Origin: Candidatus Magasanikiibacteriota bacterium
GTDB lineage: Bacteria; Patescibacteriota; Patescibacteriia; Magasanikbacterales; GWA2-37-8
Length of the DNA: 64,000 nucleotides
NCBI GenBank assembly: GCA_963840935.1
Contig: CAWJAS010000001.1
Location: forward strand, 256,875 to 320,874
Direction: 5' to 3'
Shown: positions 17,435 through 51,537 of the stretch, in pieces
Layout: every line of letters begins with the position of its first letter
How positions within the stretch are numbered: position 1 is the first letter of the stretch
Made by a program: the position numbers and the translations under genes
Notes under the pieces: generated by a model
Databases searched by the model: none
Told to the model about the DNA's origin: nothing
The model's input: the letters and a program-made list of their open reading frames with translations, nothing else

Positions 17435-18240
17435 ATATTCAGTTTTGGTTCTTATGCCGAATATAATGCGGTTTTTGGCACAAATAATCAATTGTATAAT
17501 ACTGCAAAGTATTCTTAGTTACCGGTGGTTTTAATAATGTCACTTCAACATATTCCAGCGCGTTTGGCCAATCTCATATTATTAAAGGAGATTATTCACA
17601 TCTTTTTGGTTATAGCATTGACAGCCAACAGCGAATTTATTCTTTTGGTGTTAATGTTAGTTCAACGGCAGTAACTATGAACACCCCCAATACCATCGCC
17701 CTTATGGGTGGGAATGTCGGTATTGGCACAACATCGCCGGCATCATTATTAACAATTGGTAGTGGTGGTCAGTTTCAAGTTAATTCGACCGGCAATTTAA
17801 CGAAAATTAACAATGTTCAATACTCATGGCCTTCCGCCAACGGAGCTTCCGGTACGCTATTTACCACCGATGCTTCGGGTAATTTATCTTGGGTTGCCAC
17901 AACTTCTCTTGGATTGGCAACCGGCAATGTCACCGGTTCGGGTTCGACCGGCATGGTTACTTTTTGGACCGACACCAATGTGATATCAGGTTCATCTTCA
18001 TTTATTTGGGATAATACCAATCGCTCTTTGTCGGCTGGCGGAGTCGGAAGCATGTTATTTGTCGGCACGAAAAACTCTTTTGTATTTTCGGATAACAGTA
18101 GTATACAAATTAACCCGGATTCTTTTATTGGCGGTGGTTATTCAAATGTAGTAGTTGCAACATCGTCTTTTGTTGGAGGCGGTTATTATAACGAAATTCG
18201 TGATGGGGGAAACCTTCATCATTTATTGGTGGGGGCATGA
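17432..18240 (+). pseudogene. Disrupted junction region of giant gene 2 with three lesions
   Basis: An in-frame TAA lies at 17432-17434, and the repeat-consistent translation continues after it (IFSFGSYAEYNAVFGTNNQLYNTAKYS). A TAG/frame change occurs near 17515-17521. A +/-1 shift occurs in a G5 run near 18200-18210 (GGYYNEIRDGG / KPSSFIGGGMSNVIAG). Confidence 0.6.
17677..18240 (+). CDS. Internal fragment (187 aa) of giant gene 2
   Basis: Repeat-type sequence (NTIALMGGNVGIGTTSP...) continuous in content with the upstream and downstream segments. Overlaps the next ORF by 4 nt in another frame. Confidence 0.5.
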   Translation: MNTPNTIALMGGNVGIGTTSPASLLTIGSGGQFQVNSTGNLTKINNVQYSWPSANGASGTLFTTDASGNLSWVATTSLGLATGNVTGSGSTGMVTFWTDTNVISGSSSFIWDNTNRSLSAGGVGSMLFVGTKNSFVFSDNSSIQINPDSFIGGGYSNVVVATSSFVGGGYYNEIRDGGNLHHLLVGA

Positions 18241-21200
18241 GCAATGTTATTGCCGGGCAACATTCAGGTGTGGTCGCAGGCACTTATAATATTGTTACTT
18301 CTTCGAATTCATTTATCGGAGGCGGTTCAAATAATCAAATAACAAATTCCGCATCGCGCTCGTTTATCGGTGGCGGTCAATATAATTTCGCGGATGGTTT
18401 AAATTCTTTTATTGGGGGCTACGCCAACACCACCACTGGTAATAATGCGACTGCCTTCGGGTATCAGATGCAAGTTGATGGTAATTACTCTTTTGGCATA
18501 AATGTTTCCTCGACTAATCCGGCCACAATTACAAATAATAATACTATAGCTTTAATGGGTGGGAATGTTGGAGTGGGCACCACAACGCCAGAAACAAAAT
18601 TAACCATTGATTCAACTGTAGGCGCTGGTTTATTTGGTGGAATATCTTTATCTGGCGGGGGTGCTCCAACTGCGATTTTAGGTCATGCCAATATAGTTAG
18701 TAATCATTCGGGTGTTTTAGCATTATATAACAATACCCCAGCCGAATTATTACCACCAGTATTTATTCCCGCATGGACTAAATCGGCAATATTACACGGC
18801 TTGAATATTGGTACGACATCATATTCGGGAACTGGGTTGTTAAATGTCGGTCTTACCCAACAATTCCGGGTTGATAACGATGGTGACATTGCAAGGATTA
18901 AAAATATTTCTTATGATTGGCCAGACTCTCAAGGTGCCGTTGGTACTATCTTACAAAATAACGGGGCAGGAGCATTATATTGGACTGCGACATCATCGCT
19001 CGGTTTTGTTGACACAGACACCACCACATCCCCGGCCGGTTTTGACGGGTATATTCAATTTAATGAAGACGGTGAATTCGCGGCGAGTCAGAATTTATAT
19101 TGGGCCACATCAACTGGACGATTGGGTGTTGGTGACGCATCGATAGCCGGAAGTCCGACCAATAAATTATCAATTGGCGCGACACCCAGCAGTGGTTCCG
19201 CTGACGGTATGTCTATATACGGTGATGACTTATTAACTGCCTTTGTCGGTAATTACAATTCCAGTGGTGTTTATACCGGTCGTATCGGACTTTATCGCGC
19301 CGAAGACGCTGATACTGAATTAAAAACATTCATCAGTGCCAGTGCTTCATATTTTGTCGGCGGTAATGTCGGAATCGGTGTTTCAACGACAATCCCGTCT
19401 TTGTTAACCGTTGGTTCAAATAGCGGTTTCCAAGTCAATTCTTCCGGCAATTTAACAAAAATTAACAATGTCACATATTCCTGGCCAGGATCACAAGGCG
19501 CGGCTAGCACAATTTTACAAAATGACGGTTCGGGCACATTAACTTGGGTCAATACCTCCACCCTCGGTTTCGCCACCTCTTCGCACACCCATGCCACGCT
19601 CTCACAAGGTACCGGTATCGCCGCGTTTTCATACAACGGTTCATCGGCCGCCACTGTCGGTCTGGCCACTTCGGGTGTTACTGCCGGCACTTATGGCACG
19701 GTTTCAGCAGTGCCTATCTTAGTAGTTGATACCTATGGTCGTATTACTTCGGCTTCCACATCATCAATTGCCATTTCTGCCAGTCAAATTACATCCGGGA
19801 TTCTTCCTATCGCTCGTGGTGGCACTAATTCTTCAACTATCGGCGCTGCCGGTTCGGTCCCATATTCCGATGCCACTTCATACCGTTTTACAGCCGTTGG
19901 CACCTCCGGTCAAATTCTACGCTCCAACGGGGCCGGAGCCCCAACTTGGGTTTCCACTTCAACTCTCGGCATTACTGTCACTGAAACCGATCCTGTTTTT
20001 GACGCCTTGCCGGCGGCCAAAGGTGATATATTTACCGCCACGGCCAATGATACACCATCAATTTTGTCTGTCGGTACGAATGGAAAAATATTAACAGCTT
20101 CTTCTTCCGCCACTAACGGCATAGATTGGATGACGACATCTTCTCTCATCGGCACTCTTGGCACCATGGCTTATCAAAATGCTAATAACGTAAATATTTC
20201 GGGGGGAACGATTACCAGTATAGGGGATGTTACAATTAACGAAGGTCAGCTTTATGTGCATGACAATTTATATATTACAGACGGTGATAGCGATACGGTG
20301 TCCGGCATATATTTGGGTGCCACCGAAGTCGGTCAATATTTTATAACCTCAGCCGGTACTGCCGGTCAACTTTGGTCGTCTGACGGAGATGGGCGCGGAA
20401 CATGGGTGGCGACATCTTCACTTGGTATTGCTAGCGCCGGTGGTTGGACTGATGATGGCATGGTAGTGCGATTGACCACCATTATAGACAATGTCGGCAT
20501 CGGCACAACCACACCGGCGGCTAAACTGCATGTAAATATCACAACTGGCGACGGTATCATATTAGGCTCAGGAAGCAGTGGAAGCGCAGTAGCTAAATTG
20601 TTTGCCAATGGTGACTATGGCGATGTTGGTAATATATCGTTGCATTATGGCTCAAGCCAAAAAGCTTTATTATCGGCCGACGGTGTTTCCTATCTTAATG
20701 GCGGGAATGTAGGCATTGGTACCACTTCACCGGCGGCTAAACTGCATGTAAATATCACAACTGGCGACGGTATCATATTAGGCTCAGGAAGCAGTGGAAG
20801 CGCAGTAGCTAAATTGTTTGCCAATGGTGACTATGGCGATGTTGGTAATATATCGTTGCATTATGGCTCAAGCCAAAAAGCTTTATTATCGGCCGACGGT
20901 GTTTCCTATCTTAATGGCGGGAATGTAGGCATTGGTACCACTTCACCGGCGGCTAAACTGCATGTAAATATCACAACTGGCGACGGTATCATATTAGGCT
21001 CAGGAAGCAGTGGAAGCGCAGTAGCTAAATTGTTTGCCAATGGTGACTATGGCGATGTTGGTAATATATCGTTGCATTATGGCTCAAGCCAAAAAGCTTT
21101 ATTATCGGCCGACGGTGTTTCCTATCTTAATGGCGGGAATGTCGGCATTGGTACCACTTCACCGTCATACAGCTTATCTGTTGCTGGTCATATGGCAGTT

Positions 21201-24200
21201 ACTGGAACGTTCAGAGTGGGGAATTCTCAAGATGCCGGTGCTTCAGGATATATTTTGCGATCAAATGGTTCATCGGTCGCCCCGACTTGGGTGGCCACAT
21301 CTTCGCTTGGCTTAATGAGTACTGCTCTTGCTTCCGCATACATTTGGGTAGGCAATGCTTCCGGCGTAGCAACTGCTGTTTCTATGAGCAGTGACGCTAC
21401 GATATCCAACACAGGTGCTCTAACTATTTCAGCCAATGCGGTTGGGTCAAATGAAATAATTAACAATTCAATTGCGCCGGTTGACATGGCTTCAAGTAGC
21501 GCCCCATCAGCAGTTGGAAATGTTTTAACCTATAACGGAAGTAACTTTAAATGGATTGCCACATCTTCTCTGGGAATCGCCTCTGCCGGTGGTTGGACTG
21601 ATGATGGTACGGTGGTCAGATTAACCGCAATTACAGATAGTGTCGGCATCGGCACAACCACTCCGCCATTTAAATTGGCGGTTCAAGCAGGATATAATGA
21701 TGGAATTACTTTATATAGCCCAACAGCGGTTGGGACTATTGGGATGGTTAGTATTCTTGGTGGTGGCGGTGGTCCGGCCGGAGTTTTGTTAGCAATGGAT
21801 ACTGGAGTAATAAAAACTCGTATTAGCGCCGACGCCAGCACGGATTCATATTTTGATGCTGGTGATGTCGGTATAGGTACAACTACCCCATCAAACAAAT
21901 TGCAGGTAAATGTCACTAGCAATAATGATGGCATATTATTGAGTGGCAATAGCACACTTGCTGCAAAATTATATTATGATGGTTCGAGTGGCCATATCGG
22001 ATATATGTCTTTATATGGCGGTGGAGCGGAAACCGTTAAATTATCAGCATCTGGCTATTCATATATAAATGGCGGTAATGTCGGCATCGGCACAACCACT
22101 CCGCCATTTAAATTGGCGGTTCAAGCAGGATATAATGATGGAATTACTTTATATAGCCCAACAGCGGTTGGGACTATTGGGATGGTTAGTATTCTTGGTG
22201 GTGGCGGTGGTCCGGCCGGAGTTTTGTTAGCAATGGATACTGGAGTAACAAAAATTAGAATAAGCGCTGACGCTAGTACTGATTCATATTTTAACGCTGG
22301 TGATGTCGGCATCGGCACAACAACCCCCGCCGGAAAACTGCATGTATTATCATCCGCAAGCGACGGCATATTATTAAGCGGAACAGATGATAACAAAATT
22401 GCGGCTAAACTTCATCACACTTACATGAGCGGAGCAACCGCGGGTTTGTTGTCCATGTACGATAATACAGTCCAAAAAATATATTTGAATGCCGGCGGTA
22501 TTTCGTATTTGAACGGAGGCAATGTGGGTATTGGCACTACTTCTCCTGCCTATAAATTAACTGTTGCCGGCGATTTACACGTTACAGGTACTTTAAGAGT
22601 AGGAAATAATTTTGATGCAGGTATTACCGGATACCTGTTGATGTCAAATGGCTCTTCTCTTGCACCTAGCTGGACATCAACAGCAACTTTATTTTCCTCT
22701 GCCGGTGGTTGGACTGACGATGGTACTATAGTAAGGTTGACTACATTGGGTGATAAAGTTGGAATTAATACATACAGCGCTTTTGCGCCCCTCCATGTTG
22801 GAGATACATCAAATGATGGCACTATTGTCGCAAAAGGATTACTAGGTTCTGGATACTCATTAAATTTAGATCAAGATCAACCATATTTTGTATGGAGTTC
22901 CAAGCGAGCAGCGTTAAGAGCTGGTATATCAGGGTCATCTTTAGCTTGGGATGATGCCTATGTTGGAAATTATTCTGTTGCCATGGGTTATTATTCGGCG
23001 GCAACAGGCACAGCATCAGTTGCAATCGGTGGAGCTAATATTGCCACAGCAGATTATGCAACAGCGCTTGGTTACAATATGACTGTTTCCGGCGCGCGTT
23101 CATTCGGTGTAAATGTTTCAACTACAGCCGCCACCCTCTCGCAGGCTGATACTATCGCCTTGATGGGTGGCAATGTTGGGGTTGGTAAAGTTAACCCAGA
23201 AAGAAAGCTCGATGTTAGCGGAGTGGCGCGAATTCAAAATTTTGCTTCTTTGAGCAATGTACAATATGATGCAGTCAATATTAATTATACGATGTTGGGC
23301 AACAACATCTACATGAATGAATATTCCGGTGTTCCTTATTTTGCTTATTTAAATACTGACAGCGGTGGAGCGACAGGTTATTCCGGTATGTTATTGGCTT
23401 CCGCTGGTTTTAATTTTTACGCCGATGTTTCTTCAACTGTTAAAGATGGTGTTTTGAGTGACCCAAATAAATTAATGGATTTATTATATGATGGGCAACT
23501 TATTTCATATGGCACTTATAGCGTAGGCGATTCTTTAACTGCGTCAGGCGCCGGCACCCGTATGATTTGGTTCCCAAAAAAATCCGCTTTTAGAGCGGGC
23601 ACAGCAGAAGGCACAGAATATAACGACGCGAATATTGGCAATTATTCATTTGCAGGAGGTTCTGGTAATCTTGCAAGCGGTGAATCTGCTACTGCCTTTG
23701 GAAGCAGAAATACTGCAAGTGGACAGTGGTCTTTTATCGCTGGCTCGCAAAATACCGCGTCTAATACGGCGTCCATCGCTTTGGGTCGCTCAAATAATGC
23801 CACTGGAATTTATTCTTTTACCGCTGGTTATGGTAACACTGCAAGCGGAATTTATTCCGTGGCTATTGGTAGAAGTTCAGTTGCGAGCGAAGAACACACT
23901 ACGGCTTTGGGCTATAATGCAACAGCAAGCGGTGAATATGCGACTGCTTTGGGTTATCAGAGTACCGCAAGTTTTTATGGTGCTTCTGCGTTTGGTTTTA
24001 GAAGTGTTGCTAGTAGCTTTTACTCTCTGGCTTTAGGTAACACTGTAACGTCAAGCGGATCAAACGCCGTTGCTATGGGTAGCTTTATTACTGTTTCTGG
24101 TTCTAGCTCGCTTGGTATTAATGTGTCTTCTACTGTGCCCGCAACACTTTCTCAAAATCACACTATCGCCTTAATGGGTGGGAATGTCGGTGTTGGCACA

Positions 24201-27200
24201 GTGACACCAAGTGAACAGTTGGCTGTTTGGGGTGATATGCGTGTCGCGACTACCACAGGAACTGCGCCCGCATTATATGTTGACGTATCGGCCAATGCGA
24301 TTGGTGTTCGAATGATAGCGCCACAAGAAGCTTTGCATGTTGAAGGCAATATTAGAATTCCTGGAACAGGTGCTTCAGACGGATATATTAAAATGGATGC
24401 TAATCGATATATCCATAGTTATGGGGGCACAACAAACTTTTTTGCCGGTGTTAATGCCGGTGGGCTGTCAATGACCGGTGATTACAACACAGGTGTTGGA
24501 GCTAGTTCATTAAATAATATTACATCCGGTCAAAACAATGTAGCTTTGGGTTACTACGCCTCACGAGATTTGCAAACCGGTTCAGATAATGTTGCGGTTG
24601 GAGTAAATGCGCTTTTTAATGCTACGGGTTATAGTGCCAATGTCGCCGTTGGTAAAGATGCTATGGCGGAAACTACTGCGAATTCAAGCACCGCAGTTGG
24701 TTATGAGGCGCTCAGTCGTAATACCAGTGGCGAAGGCTTGGTCGCGGTTGGTTATCAAGCTCTTACAACCAATTCCACAGGTAATTACAATTCGGCTCTT
24801 GGTTATCAAGCGCTTTATTCCAATACAACCGGTTTATATAACACGGCCTTTGGCTCTCAAACTCTTTATGATAATGTTAGCGCCCATGCCAATACCGCTT
24901 TGGGTTGGGGTGCGCTGGCGAACACAACGAACGCATCAAATACTGCGGTTGGTTTTGGAGCTTTAATTACTGATACAACTGGTTATAGTAATACTGCCGT
25001 GGGTTTGTACGCTCTAAGATATGTTTCTTCGGGCAGTTATAACGTTGCTATTGGGCTTGATGCGGGCGATAATTCTGTTTTTAATACCGAAAGTTATAAT
25101 ACTTTGATTGGAGCAAGAGCGGATGTTTCTGCTGATGCCATATCAAATTCAACCGCAATTGGCTATGACGCTGTGGTTGGTTCTAGCAACAGGGTCGTTC
25201 TTGGAAATGGCGATGTTACTTCTGTTTATATGTCCGATGATGGTGGAGCAAGTGTCTACTTCACGCCGGCTAGCACTCTTTATACTACTGCGTTATGTTG
25301 GGATAATTCCGGCCCGTCGAGTATATATGATTGTAACGGTTCGGCGACCGACTACATGGAATACTACGCGGTTGACAACGATGTTGAATCCGGGGATTTG
25401 GTTGTAATCGGAGATACTTATGTTTCAACAACCGAAGGTTTTACAATAGCAAAATTAGAAAAAGCGACAGGCCCATACGACCCGAAATTATTAGGTGTTA
25501 TTTCAATAAAAGAATGGGCTGGCGATTTCAATTCAATCGGTCAAAATAGTATTTACGAATCAGACAATCCGCACGTGCTTGCTCTTTCAGGTCGTATTCC
25601 CGTAAAGGTTACCACAGATAATGGTCCTATTTATAAAGGCGACAAGCTTACTTCATCTGATCGCCCTGGTTATGCCATGAAAGCCACCGAAGACGGTCCG
25701 ACTATTGGTATTGCTTTGGCAGATTTTACAGGTTCGGCCACAGGAACGGTTATGGTATTTATTGATCTTGGGTGGAATAATACAATTTATCGCGGATTAA
25801 CAATAAATGAAAGCGACTCGGAAATAACATTCAAAACACCAACTTTGGCTTTCACAACCACCACATATTTTACCTCTTCCGTCTCATCCACCCCCGACTC
25901 CCGCGCTTTCATCTTTAACGCTCTTAACTTTGATACCACATCAACCGACAAATACATATTATCTCTCCGTTCTAACAACAACCCGGTCTTCTCTGTCTCA
26001 TCAAACGGCGATGTTCATTCCTCCGGCAACATGTACGCCGCTTCGGCTGTCCTCGGTACTTCCACCAACCCGGGTGACTTGGCAGAAAAGGTAGACATAA
26101 ACCCCTCGGAAACCGTGGAAGCAGGGGATGTGATGATGGTTGACCCGGCATCACCCGACAGATACCAAAAATCAAATCAAGCATACGAACCGACTGTGGC
26201 CGGCGTTATCTCCACGAACCCAACCATCATTGTCGGCAACGGCAAAACCGACCAAACCGCTCCTCTTGCCATGGTCGGCAGGGTACCGGTCAAATTCAGT
26301 GAAGAAAATGGCGCAATACAAAGAGGTGACCTCCTTGTTTCCGCGAGTACCCCGGGCTATGCCATGAAATATGACCCGATTCTCGACAACTCCAGAAAAG
26401 TGGTCGGCATCATCGGTATTGCTCTTGATAATTCCATGGAATCAACCAATGGCAAAGTAATGACTCTCATCAGAACCGGTTGGGTCTACAACAAAACCCA
26501 AGCCGTCTCCAACCTTGAACAACAAGTTTACTATGTTGCTTCAAGCGCCGGTGTTGACCTATCGGTTGACCCTGAACTCATGAATATTGAAACTACTAGT
26601 GAAGGCTCTATCACCTACAACAGCGATAGCAACCTTAGTCTCAACAATTTCTCCATCACCAATGTCAAATCAATAATATCAACCAACAATAAATGGACCA
26701 TAGACGAGAACGGCATATTAATTTCTAAAATCATTACCGCTGAAGGCGCTGAAAAGAATATCTATGGCATGACTTCAGAATCTGCAGAGATTACGCTATC
26801 GGGAACCGGAACTTTGCAAATGGGTGAAATATTTATTTCTTTTGCGACCGATACAAAATCAATTATTGATGAATTAGAACCGATTAAAGTGAGTGTCACC
26901 TTAACTTCCATAGACGCAAAAGGAATCGCGGTTATAGAAAAATCCAATGAAGGATTTAAAGTTAAGGAATTGGATAATGGGACATCAAACGCCACATTTG
27001 ATTGGATTGTGATTGCCAAACGGCGTGCAATAATTAACGAATCAAGCAGTGAACCTGAAACTATTGATACTAAATCATCATCCGGTTCGCCGGTTGATGA
27101 GAGTTCTGTTGATGAGGAATTAACTCAAGCAGGAGAGGAAGACGAAACGACGGACTCGTCTTCTTCTCCTGCCGGTGATTCTTTCGAGGAACCGTTGGCT

Positions 27201-27299
27201 GAAGAACCGCCTGCAGACGAAGAACCATCTCTGGAAGAAACTCTGCCAGCCCCTGAACCTTCGGCAGAAGAGTCAACCCCTGAAGAATTTACCCCATAA
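18237..27299 (+). CDS. Main segment (3020 aa) of giant fibre/adhesin-like gene 2
   Basis: Contains Hep_Hag-like repeats, phage-fibre motifs (GVTAGTYGTVSAVPILVVDTYGRITSAS...ILPIARGGTN), perfect tandem repeats, GAGTRMIWFPKKSAFRAG, the C-terminal module shared with gene 1 and an acidic Pro/Glu-rich tail. Confidence 0.75.
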   Translation: MSNVIAGQHSGVVAGTYNIVTSSNSFIGGGSNNQITNSASRSFIGGGQYNFADGLNSFIGGYANTTTGNNATAFGYQMQVDGNYSFGINVSSTNPATITNNNTIALMGGNVGVGTTTPETKLTIDSTVGAGLFGGISLSGGGAPTAILGHANIVSNHSGVLALYNNTPAELLPPVFIPAWTKSAILHGLNIGTTSYSGTGLLNVGLTQQFRVDNDGDIARIKNISYDWPDSQGAVGTILQNNGAGALYWTATSSLGFVDTDTTTSPAGFDGYIQFNEDGEFAASQNLYWATSTGRLGVGDASIAGSPTNKLSIGATPSSGSADGMSIYGDDLLTAFVGNYNSSGVYTGRIGLYRAEDADTELKTFISASASYFVGGNVGIGVSTTIPSLLTVGSNSGFQVNSSGNLTKINNVTYSWPGSQGAASTILQNDGSGTLTWVNTSTLGFATSSHTHATLSQGTGIAAFSYNGSSAATVGLATSGVTAGTYGTVSAVPILVVDTYGRITSASTSSIAISASQITSGILPIARGGTNSSTIGAAGSVPYSDATSYRFTAVGTSGQILRSNGAGAPTWVSTSTLGITVTETDPVFDALPAAKGDIFTATANDTPSILSVGTNGKILTASSSATNGIDWMTTSSLIGTLGTMAYQNANNVNISGGTITSIGDVTINEGQLYVHDNLYITDGDSDTVSGIYLGATEVGQYFITSAGTAGQLWSSDGDGRGTWVATSSLGIASAGGWTDDGMVVRLTTIIDNVGIGTTTPAAKLHVNITTGDGIILGSGSSGSAVAKLFANGDYGDVGNISLHYGSSQKALLSADGVSYLNGGNVGIGTTSPAAKLHVNITTGDGIILGSGSSGSAVAKLFANGDYGDVGNISLHYGSSQKALLSADGVSYLNGGNVGIGTTSPAAKLHVNITTGDGIILGSGSSGSAVAKLFANGDYGDVGNISLHYGSSQKALLSADGVSYLNGGNVGIGTTSPSYSLSVAGHMAVTGTFRVGNSQDAGASGYILRSNGSSVAPTWVATSSLGLMSTALASAYIWVGNASGVATAVSMSSDATISNTGALTISANAVGSNEIINNSIAPVDMASSSAPSAVGNVLTYNGSNFKWIATSSLGIASAGGWTDDGTVVRLTAITDSVGIGTTTPPFKLAVQAGYNDGITLYSPTAVGTIGMVSILGGGGGPAGVLLAMDTGVIKTRISADASTDSYFDAGDVGIGTTTPSNKLQVNVTSNNDGILLSGNSTLAAKLYYDGSSGHIGYMSLYGGGAETVKLSASGYSYINGGNVGIGTTTPPFKLAVQAGYNDGITLYSPTAVGTIGMVSILGGGGGPAGVLLAMDTGVTKIRISADASTDSYFNAGDVGIGTTTPAGKLHVLSSASDGILLSGTDDNKIAAKLHHTYMSGATAGLLSMYDNTVQKIYLNAGGISYLNGGNVGIGTTSPAYKLTVAGDLHVTGTLRVGNNFDAGITGYLLMSNGSSLAPSWTSTATLFSSAGGWTDDGTIVRLTTLGDKVGINTYSAFAPLHVGDTSNDGTIVAKGLLGSGYSLNLDQDQPYFVWSSKRAALRAGISGSSLAWDDAYVGNYSVAMGYYSAATGTASVAIGGANIATADYATALGYNMTVSGARSFGVNVSTTAATLSQADTIALMGGNVGVGKVNPERKLDVSGVARIQNFASLSNVQYDAVNINYTMLGNNIYMNEYSGVPYFAYLNTDSGGATGYSGMLLASAGFNFYADVSSTVKDGVLSDPNKLMDLLYDGQLISYGTYSVGDSLTASGAGTRMIWFPKKSAFRAGTAEGTEYNDANIGNYSFAGGSGNLASGESATAFGSRNTASGQWSFIAGSQNTASNTASIALGRSNNATGIYSFTAGYGNTASGIYSVAIGRSSVASEEHTTALGYNATASGEYATALGYQSTASFYGASAFGFRSVASSFYSLALGNTVTSSGSNAVAMGSFITVSGSSSLGINVSSTVPATLSQNHTIALMGGNVGVGTVTPSEQLAVWGDMRVATTTGTAPALYVDVSANAIGVRMIAPQEALHVEGNIRIPGTGASDGYIKMDANRYIHSYGGTTNFFAGVNAGGLSMTGDYNTGVGASSLNNITSGQNNVALGYYASRDLQTGSDNVAVGVNALFNATGYSANVAVGKDAMAETTANSSTAVGYEALSRNTSGEGLVAVGYQALTTNSTGNYNSALGYQALYSNTTGLYNTAFGSQTLYDNVSAHANTALGWGALANTTNASNTAVGFGALITDTTGYSNTAVGLYALRYVSSGSYNVAIGLDAGDNSVFNTESYNTLIGARADVSADAISNSTAIGYDAVVGSSNRVVLGNGDVTSVYMSDDGGASVYFTPASTLYTTALCWDNSGPSSIYDCNGSATDYMEYYAVDNDVESGDLVVIGDTYVSTTEGFTIAKLEKATGPYDPKLLGVISIKEWAGDFNSIGQNSIYESDNPHVLALSGRIPVKVTTDNGPIYKGDKLTSSDRPGYAMKATEDGPTIGIALADFTGSATGTVMVFIDLGWNNTIYRGLTINESDSEITFKTPTLAFTTTTYFTSSVSSTPDSRAFIFNALNFDTTSTDKYILSLRSNNNPVFSVSSNGDVHSSGNMYAASAVLGTSTNPGDLAEKVDINPSETVEAGDVMMVDPASPDRYQKSNQAYEPTVAGVISTNPTIIVGNGKTDQTAPLAMVGRVPVKFSEENGAIQRGDLLVSASTPGYAMKYDPILDNSRKVVGIIGIALDNSMESTNGKVMTLIRTGWVYNKTQAVSNLEQQVYYVASSAGVDLSVDPELMNIETTSEGSITYNSDSNLSLNNFSITNVKSIISTNNKWTIDENGILISKIITAEGAEKNIYGMTSESAEITLSGTGTLQMGEIFISFATDTKSIIDELEPIKVSVTLTSIDAKGIAVIEKSNEGFKVKELDNGTSNATFDWIVIAKRRAIINESSSEPETIDTKSSSGSPVDESSVDEELTQAGEEDETTDSSSSPAGDSFEEPLAEEPPADEEPSLEETLPAPEPSAEESTPEEFTP
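20513..21169 (+). repeat. Perfect tandem repeat, 3 x 219 bp (73-aa unit), inside giant gene 2
   Basis: Three nucleotide-identical copies were seen. Each encodes AAKLHVNITTGDGIILGSGSSGSAVAKLFANGDYGDVGNISLHYGSSQKALLSADGVSYLNGGNVGIGTTSP. Confidence 0.8.
21643..22255 (+). repeat. Two ~438-bp tandem units with long identical stretches inside giant gene 2
   Basis: GIGTTTPPFKLAVQAGYNDGITLYSPTAVGTIGMVSILGGGGGPAGVLLAMDTGV... is repeated starting at 21643 and 22081. Confidence 0.65.
25875..26795 (+). repeat. About 930-bp block nearly identical to 11546-12475 in giant gene 1
   Basis: See the partner entry. A more diverged tandem copy of the same protein module lies just upstream, at about 25380-25800 (GDLVVIGDTYVS...GRIPVKVTTDNGPIYKGDKLTSSDRPGYAMKA...VMVFIDLGWNN). 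Confidence 0.75.
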
Positions 27300-30017: not shown

Positions 30018-32585
30018 ATGAAACAATACGACCCCAAAAAAATAGAGAAAAAATGGCAAAAAATTTGGAACAAGGAAAAAGCCTTTTCCACGCCAAAAGA
30101 CGCCATTGAAAAAAATAAATATTATATCTTGCCTCAATTGCCGTATCCTTCCGGCTCCGGTCTTCATGTCGGCCATGCCGAGGTTTATACTGCTTGCGAT
30201 ATTTATGCCCGCTACAAGCGCATGACCGGCAAAAAAGTCCTTCAAGTGATTGGTTGGGACGCTTTTGGTTTACCAGCAGAAAATTACGCCATAAAAACAA
30301 ATGTTCATCCGCGCAAATCAACCGATAAAGCGATTGATAATTTTCGTGAACAAATAAAATCTCTTGGCGTGTCTGTGGATTGGGGCAGGGAAGTGGGTTC
30401 GCATAATCCTGATTATTATAAATGGACGCAATGGTTTTTTCTGCTTTTCTACAAACGCGGACTGGCTTATCGCAAAAAACAATCGGTCAATTGGTGCGAT
30501 TCATGTAAAACAGTTTTGGCGAATGAACAAGTAACCGGTGACGGAAAATGCGAGAGGTGTGAGACTATTGTTGAACAAAGAGAGATGGAACAGTGGTATT
30601 TGAAAATTACGGATTATGCCGACCGATTACTAAAAGATTTAGATAAATTGGATTGGCCGGAAGAAACCAAAAAACGTCAGCGCGACTGGATCGGACGCTC
30701 TGACGGAGCCGAGGTTTATTTTAATGTCATTGCGAGAAGCGAAGCGCCGAAGCAATCTAATGGGATTGCTTCGTCACCTGCTACGCATGTTCCTCGCAAT
30801 GACAAAAAAATCACCGTTTTCACCACCCGGCCAGACACGTTGTTCGGCGCGACATTTATGGTACTCGCGCCCGAGCATAAATTAGTTCAGCAGTTAAAAG
30901 ACAAAATTAAGAATTGGAAAGAGGTTGAAAAATATATTAATGAAGCAAAACTCAAAACGGACCTCGACCGTCAAATACAAAAAGAAAAAACAGGAGTGGA
31001 ATTAAAAGGAATTAAGGCGATAAATCCGGCGAACAATGAAGAGATTCCTATTTTTATTGCCGATTATGTTTTGGCCACTTATGGCTTTGGCGCGATTATG
31101 GCCGTTCCGGCTCATGATGAGCGAGATTTTGAATTTGCAAAAAAATATGGGTTATTGGTTAAACAGGTTGTCATTGCGAGAAGCGAAGCGACGAAGCAAT
31201 CTCATGGGATCGCCGCGTCACTCGCTCCGCTTGTTCCTCGCGATGACAATAAGAGTTGTTATACCGGCGAAGGCGTTTCAATCAATTCCGATTTTTTAAA
31301 CGGCTTATCAACCAAAGAAGCATCTGCCAAAATGATTGGCTGGCTTCACGAAAAAAAATTGGGCAAGCGAAAAATTCAATACAAACTTCGCGACTGGTCG
31401 GTGTCCCGCCAACGCTTTTGGGGCGCCCCGATTCCTGTCCTGTATGATGAAAAAAATGAACTGCATCCGGTGTCGGAAAAAGATTTGCCGGTAATTTTGC
31501 CTGATGATGTTGATTTTAAGCCGACCGGTGAGTCGCCATTAAACTATTCAAAAAGTTTTAACAAGGGAGTAGAAAAAAAATACGGCAAGGGTTGGCACCG
31601 CGAACCCGATACGCTTGATACATTCATGTGTTCCAGTTGGTATTTTTTCCGCTATTTGGATCCGAAAAATGACAAAGCGTTTGCTTCGCCCGAAGCGCTG
31701 AAAACTTGGATGCCGGTGGATTTTTATTTGGGCGGAGCCGAGCATGTCAACAGCCATCTTTTGTATTCACGATTTTTTACCAAAGTTTTGTTTGATGAGG
31801 GGCTGATTGATTTTGATGAACCGTTTATAACCCATCGTCATCAAGGAATGATTTTGGGCGAAGATAATCACAAAATGAGCAAACGCTGGGGCAACGCGAT
31901 AAATCCGACCGATGTAATAAATGAATTTGGCGCGGATACTTTGCGCTGTTATGAAATGTTTATGGGACCTCTTGAGGCCGATAAACCATGGGATACAAAC
32001 GGTGTGCGTGGAATACGCAGATTTTTGGAGCGTGTTTGGAATTTACAGTCGCGTGTCATTGCGAGCGAAGCGAAGCAATCCCATGGGGTCGCTTCGTCGC
32101 TTGCTTCGCAGTCTCCTCGCGATGACAAATTGAATCGCCTCATCCACCAAACAATAAAAAAAGTGTCAGAGGATTTGGAAAATATGCGTTTTAATACCGC
32201 CATCGCCAAAATGATGGAATTGATTAACGAATTTTCAAAAGAGGAGAAGATTGCTAAAAGTAATTTTGAGGCGCTAATATTAATACTGGCGCCGTTTGCC
32301 CCGCATATGTGTGAGGAGCTTTGGAGTTTGCTGGGTCATAAGAATATTTTGGCTTTTGAAAAATTTCCGGAATATGATAAAAAATTGATTGAAGAAACTG
32401 AAATTACCTTGGCCGTGCAGGTTAACGGCAAATTGCGAGATACTTTGATTGTGCCGGCGGATATTACTGATAATGATGCTAAAAAATTGTCTTTGGCCAG
32501 TGAAAAGGTACAAAAATGGCTCGAGGGTAAAGAACCTAAAAAAATAATTTATATTAAAGGAAAACTGGTGAGCATTGTGGTTTGA
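30018..32585 (+). CDS. leuS: Leucyl-tRNA synthetase carrying three in-frame palindromic-element insertions
   Basis: HIGH-type motif (PYPSGSGLHVGHA), KMSKR, TTRPDT and a conserved C-terminal region. Three extra segments interrupt otherwise conserved blocks: VIARSEAPKQSNGIASSPATHVPRNDK, VIARSEATKQSHGIAASLAPLVPRDDNK and VIASEAKQSHGVASSLASQSPRDDK. Confidence 0.9.
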   Translation: MKQYDPKKIEKKWQKIWNKEKAFSTPKDAIEKNKYYILPQLPYPSGSGLHVGHAEVYTACDIYARYKRMTGKKVLQVIGWDAFGLPAENYAIKTNVHPRKSTDKAIDNFREQIKSLGVSVDWGREVGSHNPDYYKWTQWFFLLFYKRGLAYRKKQSVNWCDSCKTVLANEQVTGDGKCERCETIVEQREMEQWYLKITDYADRLLKDLDKLDWPEETKKRQRDWIGRSDGAEVYFNVIARSEAPKQSNGIASSPATHVPRNDKKITVFTTRPDTLFGATFMVLAPEHKLVQQLKDKIKNWKEVEKYINEAKLKTDLDRQIQKEKTGVELKGIKAINPANNEEIPIFIADYVLATYGFGAIMAVPAHDERDFEFAKKYGLLVKQVVIARSEATKQSHGIAASLAPLVPRDDNKSCYTGEGVSINSDFLNGLSTKEASAKMIGWLHEKKLGKRKIQYKLRDWSVSRQRFWGAPIPVLYDEKNELHPVSEKDLPVILPDDVDFKPTGESPLNYSKSFNKGVEKKYGKGWHREPDTLDTFMCSSWYFFRYLDPKNDKAFASPEALKTWMPVDFYLGGAEHVNSHLLYSRFFTKVLFDEGLIDFDEPFITHRHQGMILGEDNHKMSKRWGNAINPTDVINEFGADTLRCYEMFMGPLEADKPWDTNGVRGIRRFLERVWNLQSRVIASEAKQSHGVASSLASQSPRDDKLNRLIHQTIKKVSEDLENMRFNTAIAKMMELINEFSKEEKIAKSNFEALILILAPFAPHMCEELWSLLGHKNILAFEKFPEYDKKLIEETEITLAVQVNGKLRDTLIVPADITDNDAKKLSLASEKVQKWLEGKEPKKIIYIKGKLVSIVV
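30726..30803. repeat. Palindromic MITE-like element (78 bp) inserted in-frame in leuS
   Basis: Terminal inverted repeats gtcattgcgag ... ctcgcaatgac with an internal gaagcgaagc/gcttcg palindrome. Length is a multiple of 3. Located in the loop before TTRPDT. Confidence 0.75.
31170..31247. repeat. Palindromic MITE-like element (78 bp) inserted in-frame in leuS
   Basis: gtcattgcgag ... ctcgcgatgac. Length is a multiple of 3. Confidence 0.75.
32055..32126. repeat. Palindromic MITE-like element (72 bp) inserted in-frame in leuS
   Basis: gtcattgcgag ... ctcgcgatgac. Length is a multiple of 3. Confidence 0.75.
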
Positions 32586-40789: not shown

Positions 40790-40817
40790 TTGACAAGTTT
40801 TTTTATTAGGCTAAAAT
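40790..40817 (+). promoter_or_regulatory. Candidate groESL promoter (TTGACA-16-TAAAAT)
   Basis: Consensus -35 hexamer with a 16-nt spacer, immediately upstream of the CIRCE-like element. Confidence 0.45.
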
Positions 40818-40826
40818 GTAATCAAA

Positions 40827-40853
40827 TTATCACTCCATTATCAAGAGTGATAA
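40827..40853. promoter_or_regulatory. CIRCE-like HrcA operator (TTATCACTC-N9-GAGTGATAA)
   Basis: Perfect 9-bp inverted repeat with a 9-nt spacer. It differs from the canonical CIRCE (TTAGCACTC-N9-GAGTGCTAA) by one compensated position per arm. It sits between the promoter and groES. Confidence 0.6.
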
Positions 40854-40863
40854 ATCGTTCAGT

Positions 40864-40987
40864 GTCATTGCGAGCCGCCAAAGGGGGCGCGGCAATCCCA
40901 TTGTTTTCAGAGCTATGTTGTTGGTTCAAAATACCGTGGGATCGCCACGTCGCTTCCTGCCTGCAGGCAGGCGCTCCTCGCGATGAC
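40864..40987. repeat. Palindromic MITE-like element (124 bp) in the groES 5' UTR
   Basis: Same termini as the leuS copies (gtcattgcgag ... ctcgcgatgac), with an extra internal palindrome cctgcctgcaggcagg. Confidence 0.7.
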
Positions 40988-41011
40988 AAATAATTTATTA
41001 ATTTTATATAT

Positions 41012-41317
41012 ATGAACATAAAACCATTAGGTGACCGAGTGTTGGTCAAGCCAACAAAAGAGGAAGAGGTGACCGCGTCCGGAATTGTTTTGCCGGATAC
41101 TGTGGATAAAGAAAAAAAGGCCGAAGGTGAGATTGTTGCTGTCGGTAATGGCGAATATATCACCAAGTTAGGATTGAAAGTCGGTGATAAAATTTTATAT
41201 AAAAAATGGGGAGGGGAAGACGTGAAGACAGGTCGCGGAAAAGATGACCCGGAATACAAAATTTTGTATGTGGGCCGTGAAGAAGATAAAAGCGATGTTG
41301 TGGCTGTGATAGAATAA
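41012..41317 (+). CDS. groES: Co-chaperonin GroES
   Basis: 101 aa, [14 protein letters not shown]... Confidence 0.9.
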
Positions 41318-45468: not shown

Positions 45469-45654
45469 ATGGAAAAATATAAACCGGAAATTAATTTTAA
45501 TCAAATTAATTCAATAGAAGGACAATTAGAAAAATTGCGTTCCGAATACGCCCGGGCAAAAAATGATCCCCGTCACAAAACAAGAGCGCAAGAATTGTTG
45601 CGAAAAATAAACCAGCTTGAAAAAGCAAAATATAATTCGCTTTATAAAAAATGA
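45469..45654 (+). CDS. Small basic coiled-coil hypothetical protein
   Basis: 61 aa, ending 4 nt into uvrB. Confidence 0.3.
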   Translation: MEKYKPEINFNQINSIEGQLEKLRSEYARAKNDPRHKTRAQELLRKINQLEKAKYNSLYKK

Positions 45655-46967: not shown

Positions 46968-47245
46968 TCTGTTGGTGAGAATTGATGAGCGGATTAAAAT
47001 CGGTGAGCGTGTTTTGGCAACAACTTTAACTAAAAAGATGGCAGAAGATCTGTCTGAATATTTGGAAAAGAAAGAAAATTAAAGTTAAATATTTACATAG
47101 CGACATAGATACGATTGAACGAATAGAAATTATTACTGATTTGCGTTTGGGTAAAATTGATGTGATTGTCGGCGTGAATTTGCTTCGCGAAGGTTTGGAT
47201 ATGCCGGAAGTTTCTTTGGTGGCGATTCTTGGACGCGGATAAAGA
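46940..47245 (+). pseudogene. uvrB: uvrB central segment carrying three +/-1 frameshifts
   Basis: Conserved UvrB peptides can be read only by switching frames three times: [39 protein letters not shown], then [50 protein letters not shown], then DADKEGFLR. The implied indels are in short homopolymers. Confidence 0.7.
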
Positions 47246-47726
47246 AGGATTTTTGCGCAATTCCACCTCTCTCATACAAACAATCGGCCGGGCGGCTCGA
47301 AATGTGAATGGGCAAGTTGTTTTGTATGCCGATGTAATTACCGGTTCAATTAAACAAGCCGTTCGAGAGACTGATAGACGGCGTAAAATACAAATTGAGT
47401 ACAACAAACAACATGGCATTACGCCAAAAACAATTGAAAAAAATATCAGAAATATTTTGGAGGAGTTTGGCCTATCTTCATCAAAAAACAAGAACACAAA
47501 AACATTAAAACAAAAACGCGACCGAACGATTGCGGAATTGGATACATTGGGAGACGGTAGGCCGACGGAGGAAATTATCAGAGACAAAGAAAAACAAATG
47601 CGTAAATCGGCGAAGAATTTACAATTCGAACTGGCGGCTATTTTGCGGGATGAAATACATGAATTGAGTAAAAAGTCAGATGTGTCATCGCGAGGAGGAG
47701 CAAAGCGACGACGTGGCAATCTATAA
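47229..47726 (+). CDS. uvrB: Excinuclease ABC subunit B, C-terminal part including the UVR domain
   Basis: [27 protein letters not shown] ... [11 protein letters not shown]. Confidence 0.8.
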
Positions 47727-47814
47727 TTTTTTGGGTATGAATGGTAGACAATAAAAAAACGGACCGAGATAGAATCTCGGTCCGAGTGTTTATATGAATG
47801 AGCTTGCAAGGCTA

Positions 47815-48777: not shown

Positions 48778-51537
48778 TTGAAACGCATGCAGGAAAAAAT
48801 CATAATTAAAGGCGCGCGGGAACATAATTTGAAGAATATAAATCTTGAAATTCCGCGCAACAAAATGATTGTGTTCACAGGACTGTCCGGCTCGGGCAAG
48901 TCCTCTTTGGCATTTGATACGATTTTTGCCGAAGGCCAACGCCGTTATGTGGAATCTTTGTCCGCTTATGCCCGACAATTTTTGGGCGGAATGCAAAAAC
49001 CGGATGTTGATGAAATTGAAGGATTGTCTCCGGCCATTTCCATTGACCAAAAAGCGCACAGCGCCAACCCGCGCTCCACGGTCGCCACAATCACCGAAAT
49101 TTATGATTATTTGCGCGTTTTGTTTGCCCGCGTTGGTACGCCATTTTGCCCGATTTGCGGTCACAAAATTGAGAAGATGACAGTTGATGAAATAAAAGAA
49201 AAAATTATTGATGGCGTCGAATCAATCGTCGCGTGTCATCCCCGCGTCCCGAAGGGATCCCTTTGGGAAAGACGGGAATCCAGACAACAGATCCTTCACT
49301 CCGTTCAGGATGACAAAATGAGATTGCCACGTCGCTCTTCGGTCGCTTCTCGCAATAACACTATCAAAGAACTTGTTATTCTTTCCCCCGTAGTTCGAGG
49401 AAGAAAAGGGGAGTATTACCAGATGCTTTATGATTTGTATAATTCCGGTTTTGCCGAAGTGCGAATCGATAATAAATTTTATGGTTTGAAAGACAGGATA
49501 GTTTTGTCAAAAAATAAAAAACACACGATTGAAGTGGTAGTCGACAGAATATTTTTTGATGATGCTAAAAAATTAAATAGTGACAAAGAATTAAAACAAA
49601 GATTTGCCGAAGCGATTGAGACAGCAGTTGATTTGTCCAACGGACTCGCGAATGTTGTTTTCCCCGATAAAAATGAACAAATTTTTTCCACGGAATATTC
49701 ATGCCCGAATGACGGTTTTAGCTTTCCGGAAATTGAGCCTCGTCTTTTTAGTTTTAATAGTCCTTATGGCTATTGTGAGGCTTGCACCGGCCTTGGCACG
49801 AAGGAATTATTCAGCGAAGAGATTTGCCCCAAATGCAACGGGAAACGCTTGAATGACAATGCTTTGAGCGTGCGTATTTACAATAAAAATATTTGGGAGA
49901 TAGTATCCATGACAATTTCTGAAGCGCGGGAATTTTTTACACATCTGGAAAATAATTTGGGAGCGAAAGAAAAAGAAATTTCCGGAGCGGTGATTCGGGA
50001 AATCAATAACCGACTGGATTTTATGTTTAATGTTGGTTTGCACTATTTAACTTTGGAAAGACGAGCCGGATCGTTGTCTGGCGGTGAAGCTCAGCGAATA
50101 CGCCTGGCTTCGCAAGTCGGCACGCGTTTGGTTGGCGCTCTTTATGTTTTGGACGAACCGACAATCGGATTGCATCAGAAAGACAATGAACAGCTGGTAA
50201 AAACTTTGCGTAATCTTTGCGATATTGGTAATACGATTATTGTGGTTGAACATGATGAAGACACGATACTTGCGAGCGATTGGGTGGTGGATATCGGACC
50301 GGGTGCCGGTAAACACGGCGGAGAGATAGTTTACTCGGGACCGCTCGATGTCATTCTGAACGGAGCGAAGCGAAGTGAAGAATCTTTGGAAAATAATAAA
50401 GGATCCTTCGCTATCGCTCAGGATGACAAAACGGACTACTACGCTATCGTTGGCAACCCGATAGCTTCTCTCACCGGTCAATATTTACGAGGAGAGAAAA
50501 AAATTGCCATGCCTGATAAGCGTCGGAAAGTTGACAATACAACGCCGAAATTAAAAATTAAAGGAGCGGTAGCTCACAATTTAAAAAATATTGATGTTCA
50601 AATTCCTTTGCGCCGTTTTGTTTGTTTAACCGGAGTATCCGGTTCGGGCAAGTCAACGTTAATGCACGATATAATCGAGCGCAATTTACAAAATAGATTT
50701 TTTAGGATGAACAAACAATCGGGCCAAGTAAAATCCATTACCGGCAGTGAATACTTAGACGGCGTAATTACCATTAATCAATCGCCGATAGGGCGTACCC
50801 CACGTTCCAATCCGGCAACATATACCAAAGCATTTGACCATATTCGCGAAATATTTTCCGCCACTCCCGAAGCCCGAATGCGCGGATTTGGCCCGGGTAG
50901 ATTCAGTTTTAATGTGCCCGGAGGAAGATGCGAAAATTGTGAAGGGCGTGGAGCGCTCCAAATTGAAATGCATTTTTTGCCGAGTGTAGAAATTGTTTGT
51001 GACGTATGCAAAGGCAAAAGATTTAATCAAGAAACTTTAGCCGTCCACTATAAAGGAAAAAATATTTCTGATATTCTAAATATGACGATAGAAGAAGCGC
51101 AGGTGTTTTTTAAAGATATTCCGCAGATAAACGATAAGCTAAAAATGCTTAATGAAGTTGGCTTGGATTATTTGACGTTGGGTCAGTCGGCCACCACGCT
51201 TTCCGGCGGTGAAGCCCAGCGAATAAAATTATCAAAAGAATTATCAAGGTATGGCCACACAAAAACCCTCTATCTTTTGGATGAACCGACTACAGGATTG
51301 CACTATGATGACGTAAAAAAATTATTGGAAGTTTTACAGCGTCTTGTTTCTCAAGGCAATACCGTTTTGGTAATCGAACATAATTTGGATGTTATTAAAT
51401 GCGCCGACTGGGTAATTGATTTGGGTCCGGAAGGCGGGGATAAGGGCGGTGAATTAGTTGCCGATGGTACTCCTGAAGAAGTGGCGAGAAAATCAGGTAG
51501 TCATACCGGTTTTTATTTGCGGAGATTTTTAAAATAA
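48778..51537 (+). CDS. uvrA: Excinuclease ABC subunit A, with two in-frame repeat-element insertions
   Basis: Two ABC ATPase modules (GLSGSGKSSLAFDT, GVSGSGKSTL, LSGGEAQRI x2) and zinc-finger cysteines. Extra segments lie at about aa 150-195 and about aa 525-550. Confidence 0.9.
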   Translation: MKRMQEKIIIKGAREHNLKNINLEIPRNKMIVFTGLSGSGKSSLAFDTIFAEGQRRYVESLSAYARQFLGGMQKPDVDEIEGLSPAISIDQKAHSANPRSTVATITEIYDYLRVLFARVGTPFCPICGHKIEKMTVDEIKEKIIDGVESIVACHPRVPKGSLWERRESRQQILHSVQDDKMRLPRRSSVASRNNTIKELVILSPVVRGRKGEYYQMLYDLYNSGFAEVRIDNKFYGLKDRIVLSKNKKHTIEVVVDRIFFDDAKKLNSDKELKQRFAEAIETAVDLSNGLANVVFPDKNEQIFSTEYSCPNDGFSFPEIEPRLFSFNSPYGYCEACTGLGTKELFSEEICPKCNGKRLNDNALSVRIYNKNIWEIVSMTISEAREFFTHLENNLGAKEKEISGAVIREINNRLDFMFNVGLHYLTLERRAGSLSGGEAQRIRLASQVGTRLVGALYVLDEPTIGLHQKDNEQLVKTLRNLCDIGNTIIVVEHDEDTILASDWVVDIGPGAGKHGGEIVYSGPLDVILNGAKRSEESLENNKGSFAIAQDDKTDYYAIVGNPIASLTGQYLRGEKKIAMPDKRRKVDNTTPKLKIKGAVAHNLKNIDVQIPLRRFVCLTGVSGSGKSTLMHDIIERNLQNRFFRMNKQSGQVKSITGSEYLDGVITINQSPIGRTPRSNPATYTKAFDHIREIFSATPEARMRGFGPGRFSFNVPGGRCENCEGRGALQIEMHFLPSVEIVCDVCKGKRFNQETLAVHYKGKNISDILNMTIEEAQVFFKDIPQINDKLKMLNEVGLDYLTLGQSATTLSGGEAQRIKLSKELSRYGHTKTLYLLDEPTTGLHYDDVKKLLEVLQRLVSQGNTVLVIEHNLDVIKCADWVIDLGPEGGDKGGELVADGTPEEVARKSGSHTGFYLRRFLK
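49235..49365. repeat. Diverged palindromic MITE-like element(s) (about 130 bp, one full plus one partial copy) in-frame in uvrA
   Basis: gtcatcc...ggatgac inverted repeats, then gccacgtcgctcttcggtcgcttctcgcaataac, which resembles the leuS copy (gccgcgtcactcgctccgcttgttcctcgcgatgac). Confidence 0.5.
50350..50427. repeat. Diverged palindromic MITE-like element (78 bp) in-frame in uvrA
   Basis: gtcattctgaacggagcgaagcgaag ... gctcaggatgac. Compare the leuS copies gtcattgcgagaagcgaagcg ... cctcgcgatgac. Length is a multiple of 3. Confidence 0.55.

Follow-up and report, generated by a model that had tools for sequence, protein, structure and literature searches.

Three in-frame copies of a REP-like inverted repeat in the leucyl-tRNA synthetase gene of a Candidatus Magasanikbacteria genome

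The leuS gene (positions 30018-32585, + strand), encoding leucyl-tRNA synthetase (LeuRS, 855 aa), is located in a 64-kb stretch of contig CAWJAS010000001.1 (assembly GCA_963840935.1), which is referred to here as the window, and its coding sequence carries three copies of a short palindromic repeat. The question raised by this locus is what kind of repeat these copies are and how an essential gene can hold three of them. The gene was taken from the open reading frame (ORF) list and its translation, and it hosts all three copies. The closest relatives of the product were leucine--tRNA ligases of Candidatus Magasanikbacteria or Patescibacteria, with an identical protein (P0001) on a 770,905-bp contig, and these homologue names agreed with the candidate phyla radiation (CPR) host that the original prediction had assumed from the letters alone. 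The structures of T. thermophilus and E. coli LeuRS matched the product with E values of about 1e-215 and 1e-193, respectively.

The first copy occupies positions 30725..30804 (+ strand, 78-nt core at 30726-30803) and is read as residues 237-262, VIARSEAPKQSNGIASSPATHVPRND. It is located where the chain enters the editing (CP1) domain, near the conserved TTRPDT as predicted, and is followed by three codons (KKI) and then TVFTTRPDT. The second copy (31169..31248, +; 78-nt core 31170-31247; residues 385-410, VIARSEATKQSHGIAASLAPLVPRDD) lies in a variable loop within the same domain, and the third (32054..32127, +; 72-nt core 32055-32126; residues 680-703, VIASEAKQSHGVASSLASQSPRDD) lies between two helices past the KMSK loop, where the anticodon-binding domain starts. 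The three 72-78-nt copies with inverted termini were thus confirmed in the sequence, and the repeat was found to extend by one more base on each side. The termini read GTCATTGCGAG...CTCGC(A/G)ATGAC; the inversion is perfect in copy 1, whereas copies 2 and 3 each show a single A>G change. With at most one mismatch allowed, the window contained 11 occurrences of the terminal 11-mer where 0.89 were expected, and no shuffle out of 100 attained 11. A repeat search clustered the three copies as one family (D15), with ungapped identities of 87% and 62%. The claim that the lengths are multiples of three and introduce no stop held across the whole 855-aa ORF: all copies were in phase with it, shared a common orientation and phase, and encoded one hydrophilic peptide type with the general reading VIA(R)SEAxKQS...PR(N/D)D. 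Folded as RNA, a check that had been proposed with the prediction, each copy formed one long hairpin, with free energies (dG) of -38.1, -34.9 and -33.3 kcal/mol and z values of -7.1, -3.5 and -3.5 for copies 1, 2 and 3, respectively.

Based on an alignment of 45 unfused Magasanikbacteria LeuRS orthologues (59-79% identity), the three segments are insertions in loops, relative both to the orthologues and to solved LeuRS. The element family was absent at sites 1, 2 and 3 in 43, 44 and 43 of these orthologues, respectively; among them the site-1 element was common to P0002 only, and a related, longer element at site 3 was held by P0004 only. The majority of the orthologues were short at each site, though many nonetheless held other insertions. 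In T. thermophilus LeuRS (1H3N), a 21-residue gap faced insert 1 and a 13-residue gap faced insert 2, while site 3 aligned to a long, variable stretch of this enzyme. In an AlphaFold model based on the 45-sequence alignment (mean predicted local distance difference test score, pLDDT, 80.2; predicted TM-score, pTM, 0.76), the sole long segments with pLDDT below 50 were residues 242-260, 396-409 and 684-698, which are the three inserts. They were modelled as coil between regular secondary-structure elements, with insert 3 placed between helices 660-679 and 700-721. The variable-loop position that had been proposed was therefore borne out both by the orthologue alignment and by the low-confidence coil of the model. 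Many Magasanikbacteria LeuRS homologues are longer, 940-1200 aa (e.g. P0007, P0020-P0026, P0035 and P0075), with C-terminal fusions to NUDIX (PF00293), alpha/beta-hydrolase (PF00561, PF06821, PF12697) or methyltransferase (PF08241, PF13489) partners; the window LeuRS has no such fusion.

Each dimeric copy consists of two inverted arms, and the plan of an arm is a 4-nt tag TGTC, an AT-first stem, a loop and a CC-rich tail. Every copy in the window was flanked by T...A, giving ends TGTCAT...ATGACA with the inverted repeat one base longer on each side, and the flanks of the alphaproteobacterial copies shown by the genome scan described below were mostly C...G, giving CGTC. In a test set of 25 arms from the window and four orthologous leuS genes, the tag was TGTC in 24 and TGTT in one, and a perfect stem of 5 bp or more stood right after the tag in 22, compared with 4% of random window positions. 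Six stem sequences were distinguished, all of them AT-first (ATTGC, ATCGC, ATCCT, ATCCC, ATTCT and ATTCC...). Both arms of leuS copy 1 had the stem ATTGC/GCAAT, and copy 2 had ATTGC/GCAAT in its left arm and ATCGC/GCGAT in its right arm, where the terminal A>G was matched by a T>C in the inner half. This change was compensated within one arm, and the arm, besides the long hairpin, is therefore supported as a conserved unit. Loop length in the window arms was 11-34 nt, with a shared GA-rich motif, GAGCGAAGCGAA, and the unit of the leuS family reads ATTGC-GAGGAGCGAAGCGACGAA-GCAAT. The dimers were stable (-27 to -62 kcal/mol), and their GC content was 52-60% against 42% for the window, with one uvrA dimer (43.6%) as the exception.

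This plan was compared with that of the CGTC-tagged repetitive extragenic palindrome (REP) superfamily. The paper by Di Nocera, De Gregorio and Rocco (BMC Genomics 2013, PMC3733652) describes four families, CGTC-1 to CGTC-4, whose unit has an unpaired 4-nt CGTC tag (with TGTC as a common variant, and CCTC as another), a stem of 8-9 bp with complementary A and T at the first two positions, a loop of 4-5 nt and an unpaired CCA-like tail. According to this paper, these units occur mostly as head-to-head dimers in five phyla, and no transposase was found linked to them; intragenic dimers encode 20-30 residues with peptides such as VIPAKAGI, SFPRKRES and ...DSRFRGND, the in-frame hosts include uvrA, uvrB, uvrC, polA, dnaE2, GlyRS-beta and IleRS, Rickettsia palindromic elements (RPEs) RPE-4 and RPE-6 are equated with CGTC-4 and CGTC-1, and loops of other length are recorded for CGTC-1 of Bradyrhizobium. 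The window elements have the TGTC tag, the AT-first stem, a C-first tail and inverted dimers with outer tags. They also sit in frame inside genes, with uvrA, uvrB and an aminoacyl-tRNA synthetase (aaRS) gene as hosts. No transposase family was detected among 20 ORFs of the window, which covers 64 kb of a 770,905-bp contig. A further link comes from sister genomes, in which the same leuS loops are taken up by canonical CGTC-1 units. In P0003 and P0005 the site-2 unit TGTC-ATTCCCGC-GCAG-GCGGGAAT-CCAG, with an 8-bp stem and a 4-nt loop (-8.9 kcal/mol, z -4.3), is read as VIPAQAGIQ, and by peptide the RPE-6/CGTC-1 signature VIPAKAGI matched these units and not the window copies; at site 1 of P0003 the unit TGTC-ATCCCCGAC-CCG-GTCGGGGAT-CCAG has a 9-bp stem and a 3-nt loop, which is short of the usual 4-5 nt. 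The canonical units of P0003 and P0005 carry the CCA tail, unlike the window arms, whose tails are CCC, CTC, CTA, CCT, CTT and CTG. The window arms also differ from the units of 2013 in their 5-bp stem and long GA-rich loop, in a host phylum, Patescibacteria/CPR, outside the five listed, and in the presence of three dimers in one aaRS gene. On the strength of tag, AT-first stem, tail, dimer form and co-occurrence with canonical units, the window elements are filed here as a putative short-stem, long-loop member of the superfamily, in its TGTC variant. They may be the Bradyrhizobium CGTC-1 variant with other loops, as suggested by the abundance of the exact arm in Bradyrhizobium. The likeness to RPEs drawn by the original prediction was thus more than an analogy, since PMC3733652 puts RPE-4 and RPE-6 in a superfamily that shares this plan. 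As for how unusual the phenomenon is, its presence in a CPR genome was real, but it is less unusual than implied, because the paper had already listed REPs in frame in uvrA, uvrB, GlyRS and IleRS.

Two other groups of palindromic repeats were considered for comparison. Ogata et al. are said to have described RPEs in 2000 and 2002 as elements inserted in frame in conserved functional genes, with extra peptides compatible with the protein fold. The window elements are likewise palindromic, in frame in conserved genes (leuS and uvrA) and at fold-compatible positions. They differ from RPEs in length (72-124 bp against about 150 bp for classical RPE-1), in repeat sequence and peptide (VIARSEATKQS...PRND against VIPAKAGI or SFPRKRES), in having a free-standing CPR host instead of Rickettsia, and in an arm sequence that is spread over many phyla. 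Bertels and Rainey reportedly described REPINs in 2011 together with REP-associated tyrosine transposases (RAYTs) and GTAG-tagged REPs. As in REPINs, a pair of inverted REP stem-loops makes up a larger hairpin of about 70-120 nt, copies are dispersed and non-autonomous, and the singlets look like decayed dimers. Unlike REPINs, the tag is TGTC or CGTC and not GTAG, no Y1 transposase or RAYT was present among the window ORFs scanned, and the arm recurs unchanged from phylum to phylum, often within genes, whereas REPINs are lineage-specific and intergenic. Readings as attC, CRISPR or dif-like sites were dropped, as the termini did not fit the consensus sites known in general.

The history of the three sites was revealed by a codon alignment of nine leuS genes. 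At site 1, the window and P0002 hold the same family, 61/78 identical compared with 75% gene-wide, and the central stem has decayed in the P0002 copy; P0003 holds a different REP pair with an identical left junction (TTTAAT|GTCAT), and the other six genes are empty. At site 2 the window carries a family of its own, a single CGTC-1 unit is present in P0003 and P0005 and a decayed one in P0009, P0002 carries one unit of a different type, and P0004 has a dimer of yet another type; the empty allele of P0013 reads GTTGTCGACAAA, and P0036 and P0048 have a minimal loop. At site 3, the window and P0004 share the family and the junction, the P0004 copy being longer with its right end read as ...LLAMT; P0005 retains a right-arm remnant alone, TCGCAGTCTCCAAGCGACGACAAA (SQSPSDDK), and the remaining genes are empty. 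According to these codon alignments, the inserts pass down by inheritance, evolve about as fast as the gene and turn into ordinary loop sequence by in-frame decay, and the same loops have been occupied repeatedly. Besides, the paralogous leuS copies 1 and 2 were more alike (68/78 identical) than the window's site-1 copy and its P0002 orthologue, and the P0002 site-1 copy resembled a mosaic of window copies 2 and 3. Such likeness hints at gene conversion among the copies or at repeated replacement.

The original prediction would have failed if the element were unique to these sites in leuS. Further copies were found in the window by a hidden Markov model of the three leuS copies plus direct inspection, which brought the total to three single arms and six dimers. 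Of these, five dimers and two arms lie within leuS and uvrA and are read through there, and the third arm forms the end of uvrB. In uvrA (48778-51537, +), a dimer with other stem types (ATCCC/GGGAT and ATCCT/AGGAT) at 49234..49315 (+; 80-nt core 49235-49314) is in frame and read as CHPRVPKGSLWERRESRQQILHSVQDD. It is followed by a single arm of the leuS family at 49318..49360 (- strand; tag TGTT, stem ATTGC/GCAAT), read through as MRLPRRSSVASRNN, and a second dimer at 50349..50428 (+; 78-nt core 50350-50427; stems ATTCT/AGAAT and ATCCT/AGGAT; -30.1 kcal/mol) is in frame as VILNGAKRSEESLENNKGSFAIAQDD. Residues 146-198 and 529-559 of the uvrA product had no counterpart in the UvrA structure 2R6F. 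Separately, this product lacks about 113 residues of G. stearothermophilus UvrA (chain 304-418, between query residues 343 and 344), which looks like the loss of an insertion domain. A single arm of the leuS family at 47683..47723 (+), with an imperfect stem (ATCGC vs GCAAT), provides uvrB (45651-47726, +) with its final residues and its stop codon. In uvrB itself the frame shifts by +1 three times in succession, around 46955, 47085 and 47225, and returns to the original before LDADKEGFL. The gene is either a pseudogene or affected by assembly indel errors; directly 3' of it, at 47751-47793 between convergent genes, stands a strong terminator-like hairpin (AAAAAAACGGACCGAGAT / ATCTCGGTCCGAGTGTTT). 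The one intergenic dimer, of the leuS family, is located at 40863..40988 (+; 124-nt core 40864-40987), with arms ATTGC/GCAAT and ATCGC/GCGAT and a free energy of -61.9 kcal/mol. It sits between a CIRCE-like operator and the start codon of groES at 41012, and its 124 nt are not a multiple of three. The groES leader (40790-41012) also holds promoter-like TTGACA (40790) and TAAAAT (about 40813) motifs and the CIRCE-like inverted repeat TTATCACTC-N9-GAGTGATAA at 40827-40853, so that the dimer is in the 5' leader of a heat-shock operon.

The family was also widespread beyond the window. GTDB species genomes were scanned with the exact 32-nt left arm, with two positions left free, and at least 120 loci in many phyla were detected. 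Among the matches listed, most arms were in Bradyrhizobium, Rhodopseudomonas and other Alphaproteobacteria; the other hosts listed were Gammaproteobacteria, Omnitrophica, Chloroflexota, Spirochaetaceae, Bacteroidota, Bacillota, Marinimicrobia, Desulfobacterota, Aminicenantes, Sulfurimonas and Opitutia. Complete elements in these genomes measured 73-131 nt, and every length class modulo three was present. Open frames (21/83 long ones) were uninformative on the genic fraction in Alphaproteobacteria, because long open frames are common in high-GC DNA. At the protein level, a 30-residue peptide profile was searched against 1.84 billion representatives and matched 66 proteins at E<=1e-3, which are examples and not a census; the number was this small because the query was short. 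Most of these matches were small spurious ORFs of tandem copies read in three frames, with the peptides VIARSEATKQS, HCEERSDEAIS, SLREAKRRSNL, LLRFARNDG and LAMT. Two genuine hosts, the M23 peptidase P0131 (1152 aa) and P0173 (496 aa), had two in-frame copies each. A BLAST search against annotated plasmids gave five partial matches with no annotation on them.

Given these results, we consider it highly probable that the leuS segments are inverted dimers of a tagged REP-type repeat, read through as neutral or selfish surface loops. The repeats would have entered leuS at three loops tolerant of extra residues. The copies would be transcribed and read through by the ribosome, each adding a hydrophilic, probably disordered surface loop of 24-26 residues, and read-through would give junction peptides such as VYFNVIARSEAPK, DDNKSCYTGEGVSINSDFLNGLSTK and FNVIARSEAPK. 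The repeats would behave as selfish or neutral DNA, and the copies now seen would be survivors of selection, in which the frame is kept, the TGA hidden in the terminal ATGAC is avoided and the loop is permissive. In a compact 0.77-Mb genome with scant intergenic space, mainly copies in permissive loops and open phase would stay visible, and after insertion they would drift and decay to ordinary loop sequence. The lengths of the genic dimers, counted from GTC to GAC, were 78, 78, 72, 78, 78 and 78 nt (0 mod 3) and 80, 86 and 107 nt (2 mod 3). None of the nine belonged to the 1 mod 3 class, in which the TGA within the terminal ATGAC would come into frame, an argument that applies to copies entered in the GTC phase (8/9 genic dimers). 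Several observations weigh against this reading. The 5-bp stem and 11-34-nt loop of the window arms depart from the canonical 8-9 bp and 4-5 nt. Single window arms folded as DNA were not stable as monomers, and the monomer stem is therefore supported by covariation, not by energy. The shared orientation and phase of the three leuS copies could mean selection on the peptide instead of neutrality, and different REP families at the same junctions in sister lineages would not be predicted by random insertion and selection alone.

Selection on the peptide is the core of a second explanation, in which the peptides or the RNA hairpins have been co-opted in LeuRS for editing-domain movement, tRNA contacts or translation speed at domain boundaries. 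The common orientation, phase and hydrophilic peptide of the three copies, the repeated occupation of the three sites in related lineages and the position of site 1 at the entry to the editing domain are in its favour. However, most orthologues manage without an insert at each site, the occupants vary in family and peptide between sister lineages and include decayed halves, and the model shows the segments as disordered. Divergence of the shared site-1 copy has kept pace with that of the gene, and its central stem has decayed in P0002. Co-option is thus regarded as improbable.

[quoted passage not shown] Bacterial MITEs do have occasional in-frame intragenic copies (review PMC10969869). Like Correia/NEMIS, RUP, Nezha and ERIC elements, the window elements are small, with terminal inverted repeats and hairpin-forming transcripts. 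They are also dispersed and within the MITE size range (72-124 nt), and their inverted termini measure 11-12 nt and have TG...CA ends. Nevertheless, no target-site duplication flanked any of the window copies or the orthologous copies, whose flanks share T...A alone, continuing the inverted repeat; no parent IS was seen in the window, and no transposase family was represented among the 20 ORFs at 27.5-58 kb of it. Moreover, single arms occur alone, and the within-arm compensatory stems (ATTGC/GCAAT vs ATCGC/GCGAT, and others) point to a tagged stem-loop and not to a plain terminal inverted repeat. PMC3733652 also reports no transposase linked to CGTC REPs. A MITE origin is hence judged quite improbable, and the label is imprecise: an inverted dimer of tagged REPs fits better.

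It is very unlikely that the hairpins are cut from the mRNA or bypassed by the ribosome, leaving mature LeuRS without the extra peptides. Bypassed hairpins have precedents in T4 gene 60 and in the mitochondrial byp elements of Magnusiomyces, and the RNA hairpins of the leuS copies are very stable (-33 to -38 kcal/mol). But every genic copy seen keeps the frame of its host and is stop-free, the genic dimers avoid the single length class that brings TGA into frame, and decayed remnants persist as ordinary codons in orthologues; removal would constrain neither length nor stops, so that their preservation argues against it. An assembly artefact, by repeat-induced chimeras or errors in a metagenome-assembled genome, has a negligible probability. 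In its favour, the three uvrB frame changes in the same window look like indel errors or pseudogenisation, a sign that the assembly has flaws. Against it, the leuS frame is intact through all three copies, and it is excluded in effect since independent assemblies of other samples have elements at site 1 (P0002), sites 1 and 2 (P0003), sites 2 and 3 (P0004) and site 2 with a site-3 remnant (P0005).

Returning to the tagged REP dimers, the repeated use of identical junctions raised the tentative and rather unlikely idea that short (T)GTC...GAC(A) proto-sites, or REP tags already in place, attract CGTC/TGTC REPs, which would then not land at random. The first codon of the REP, GTC, coincides with a Val/Ile of the host at the three leuS sites and at the site of the second uvrA dimer (50349-50428), and this Val/Ile is also present at the loop edge in insertion-free proteins. 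The nearest empty alleles use GTC there (GTC...GAC), though GTC makes up about 20% of Val codons, and the empty site-2 allele of P0013 amounts to two tags abutted, TGTC|GACA. Targeting would explain the GTC coincidence, the GTC...GAC empty alleles and the different REP families at identical junctions, but the coincidence could also come from excision footprints or from alignment or selection bias. If targeting were true, CPR genomes, with their copies in alignable conserved genes, would offer a first handle on the movement of this transposase-less superfamily. Orthologous filled, empty and decayed sites in such genes bear in any case on how CGTC REPs spread.

In-frame REP and RPE repeats, including those in aaRS and uvrA hosts, were described from 2000 to 2013 and are already known. 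The new points are such repeats in a host phylum for which the literature searched has no report, and the spread of the family across many phyla, which takes the host range of the CGTC REP superfamily well past the five phyla of 2013. Literature searches for MITE or RPE together with Patescibacteria returned nothing relevant; those with the strings of the element gave none for the peptides, and the DNA strings matched primers only. Even a 0.77-Mb CPR genome thus harbours tagged REPs, and because intergenic room is lacking they persist inside essential genes (leuS and uvrA) as putative protein loops. For annotation, the peptides VIARSEATKQS, SLREAKRRSNL, HCEERSDEAIS, LLRFARND and VIPAQAGIQ in metagenome proteins can be read as repeat-derived and not as domain features.

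Elsewhere in the window, an Rfam scan of 29-50 kb at E<=1 detected no known RNA family. Two giant ORFs of 2930 and 3020 aa were located at 4127-12919 and 18237-27299 (+). They and their neighbours are made of diverged internal repeats, including 216-nt tandem units (20490-21164) and a shared NTIALMGGNVGIGT-like motif, and the products of these repeat-built ORFs are probably surface proteins.

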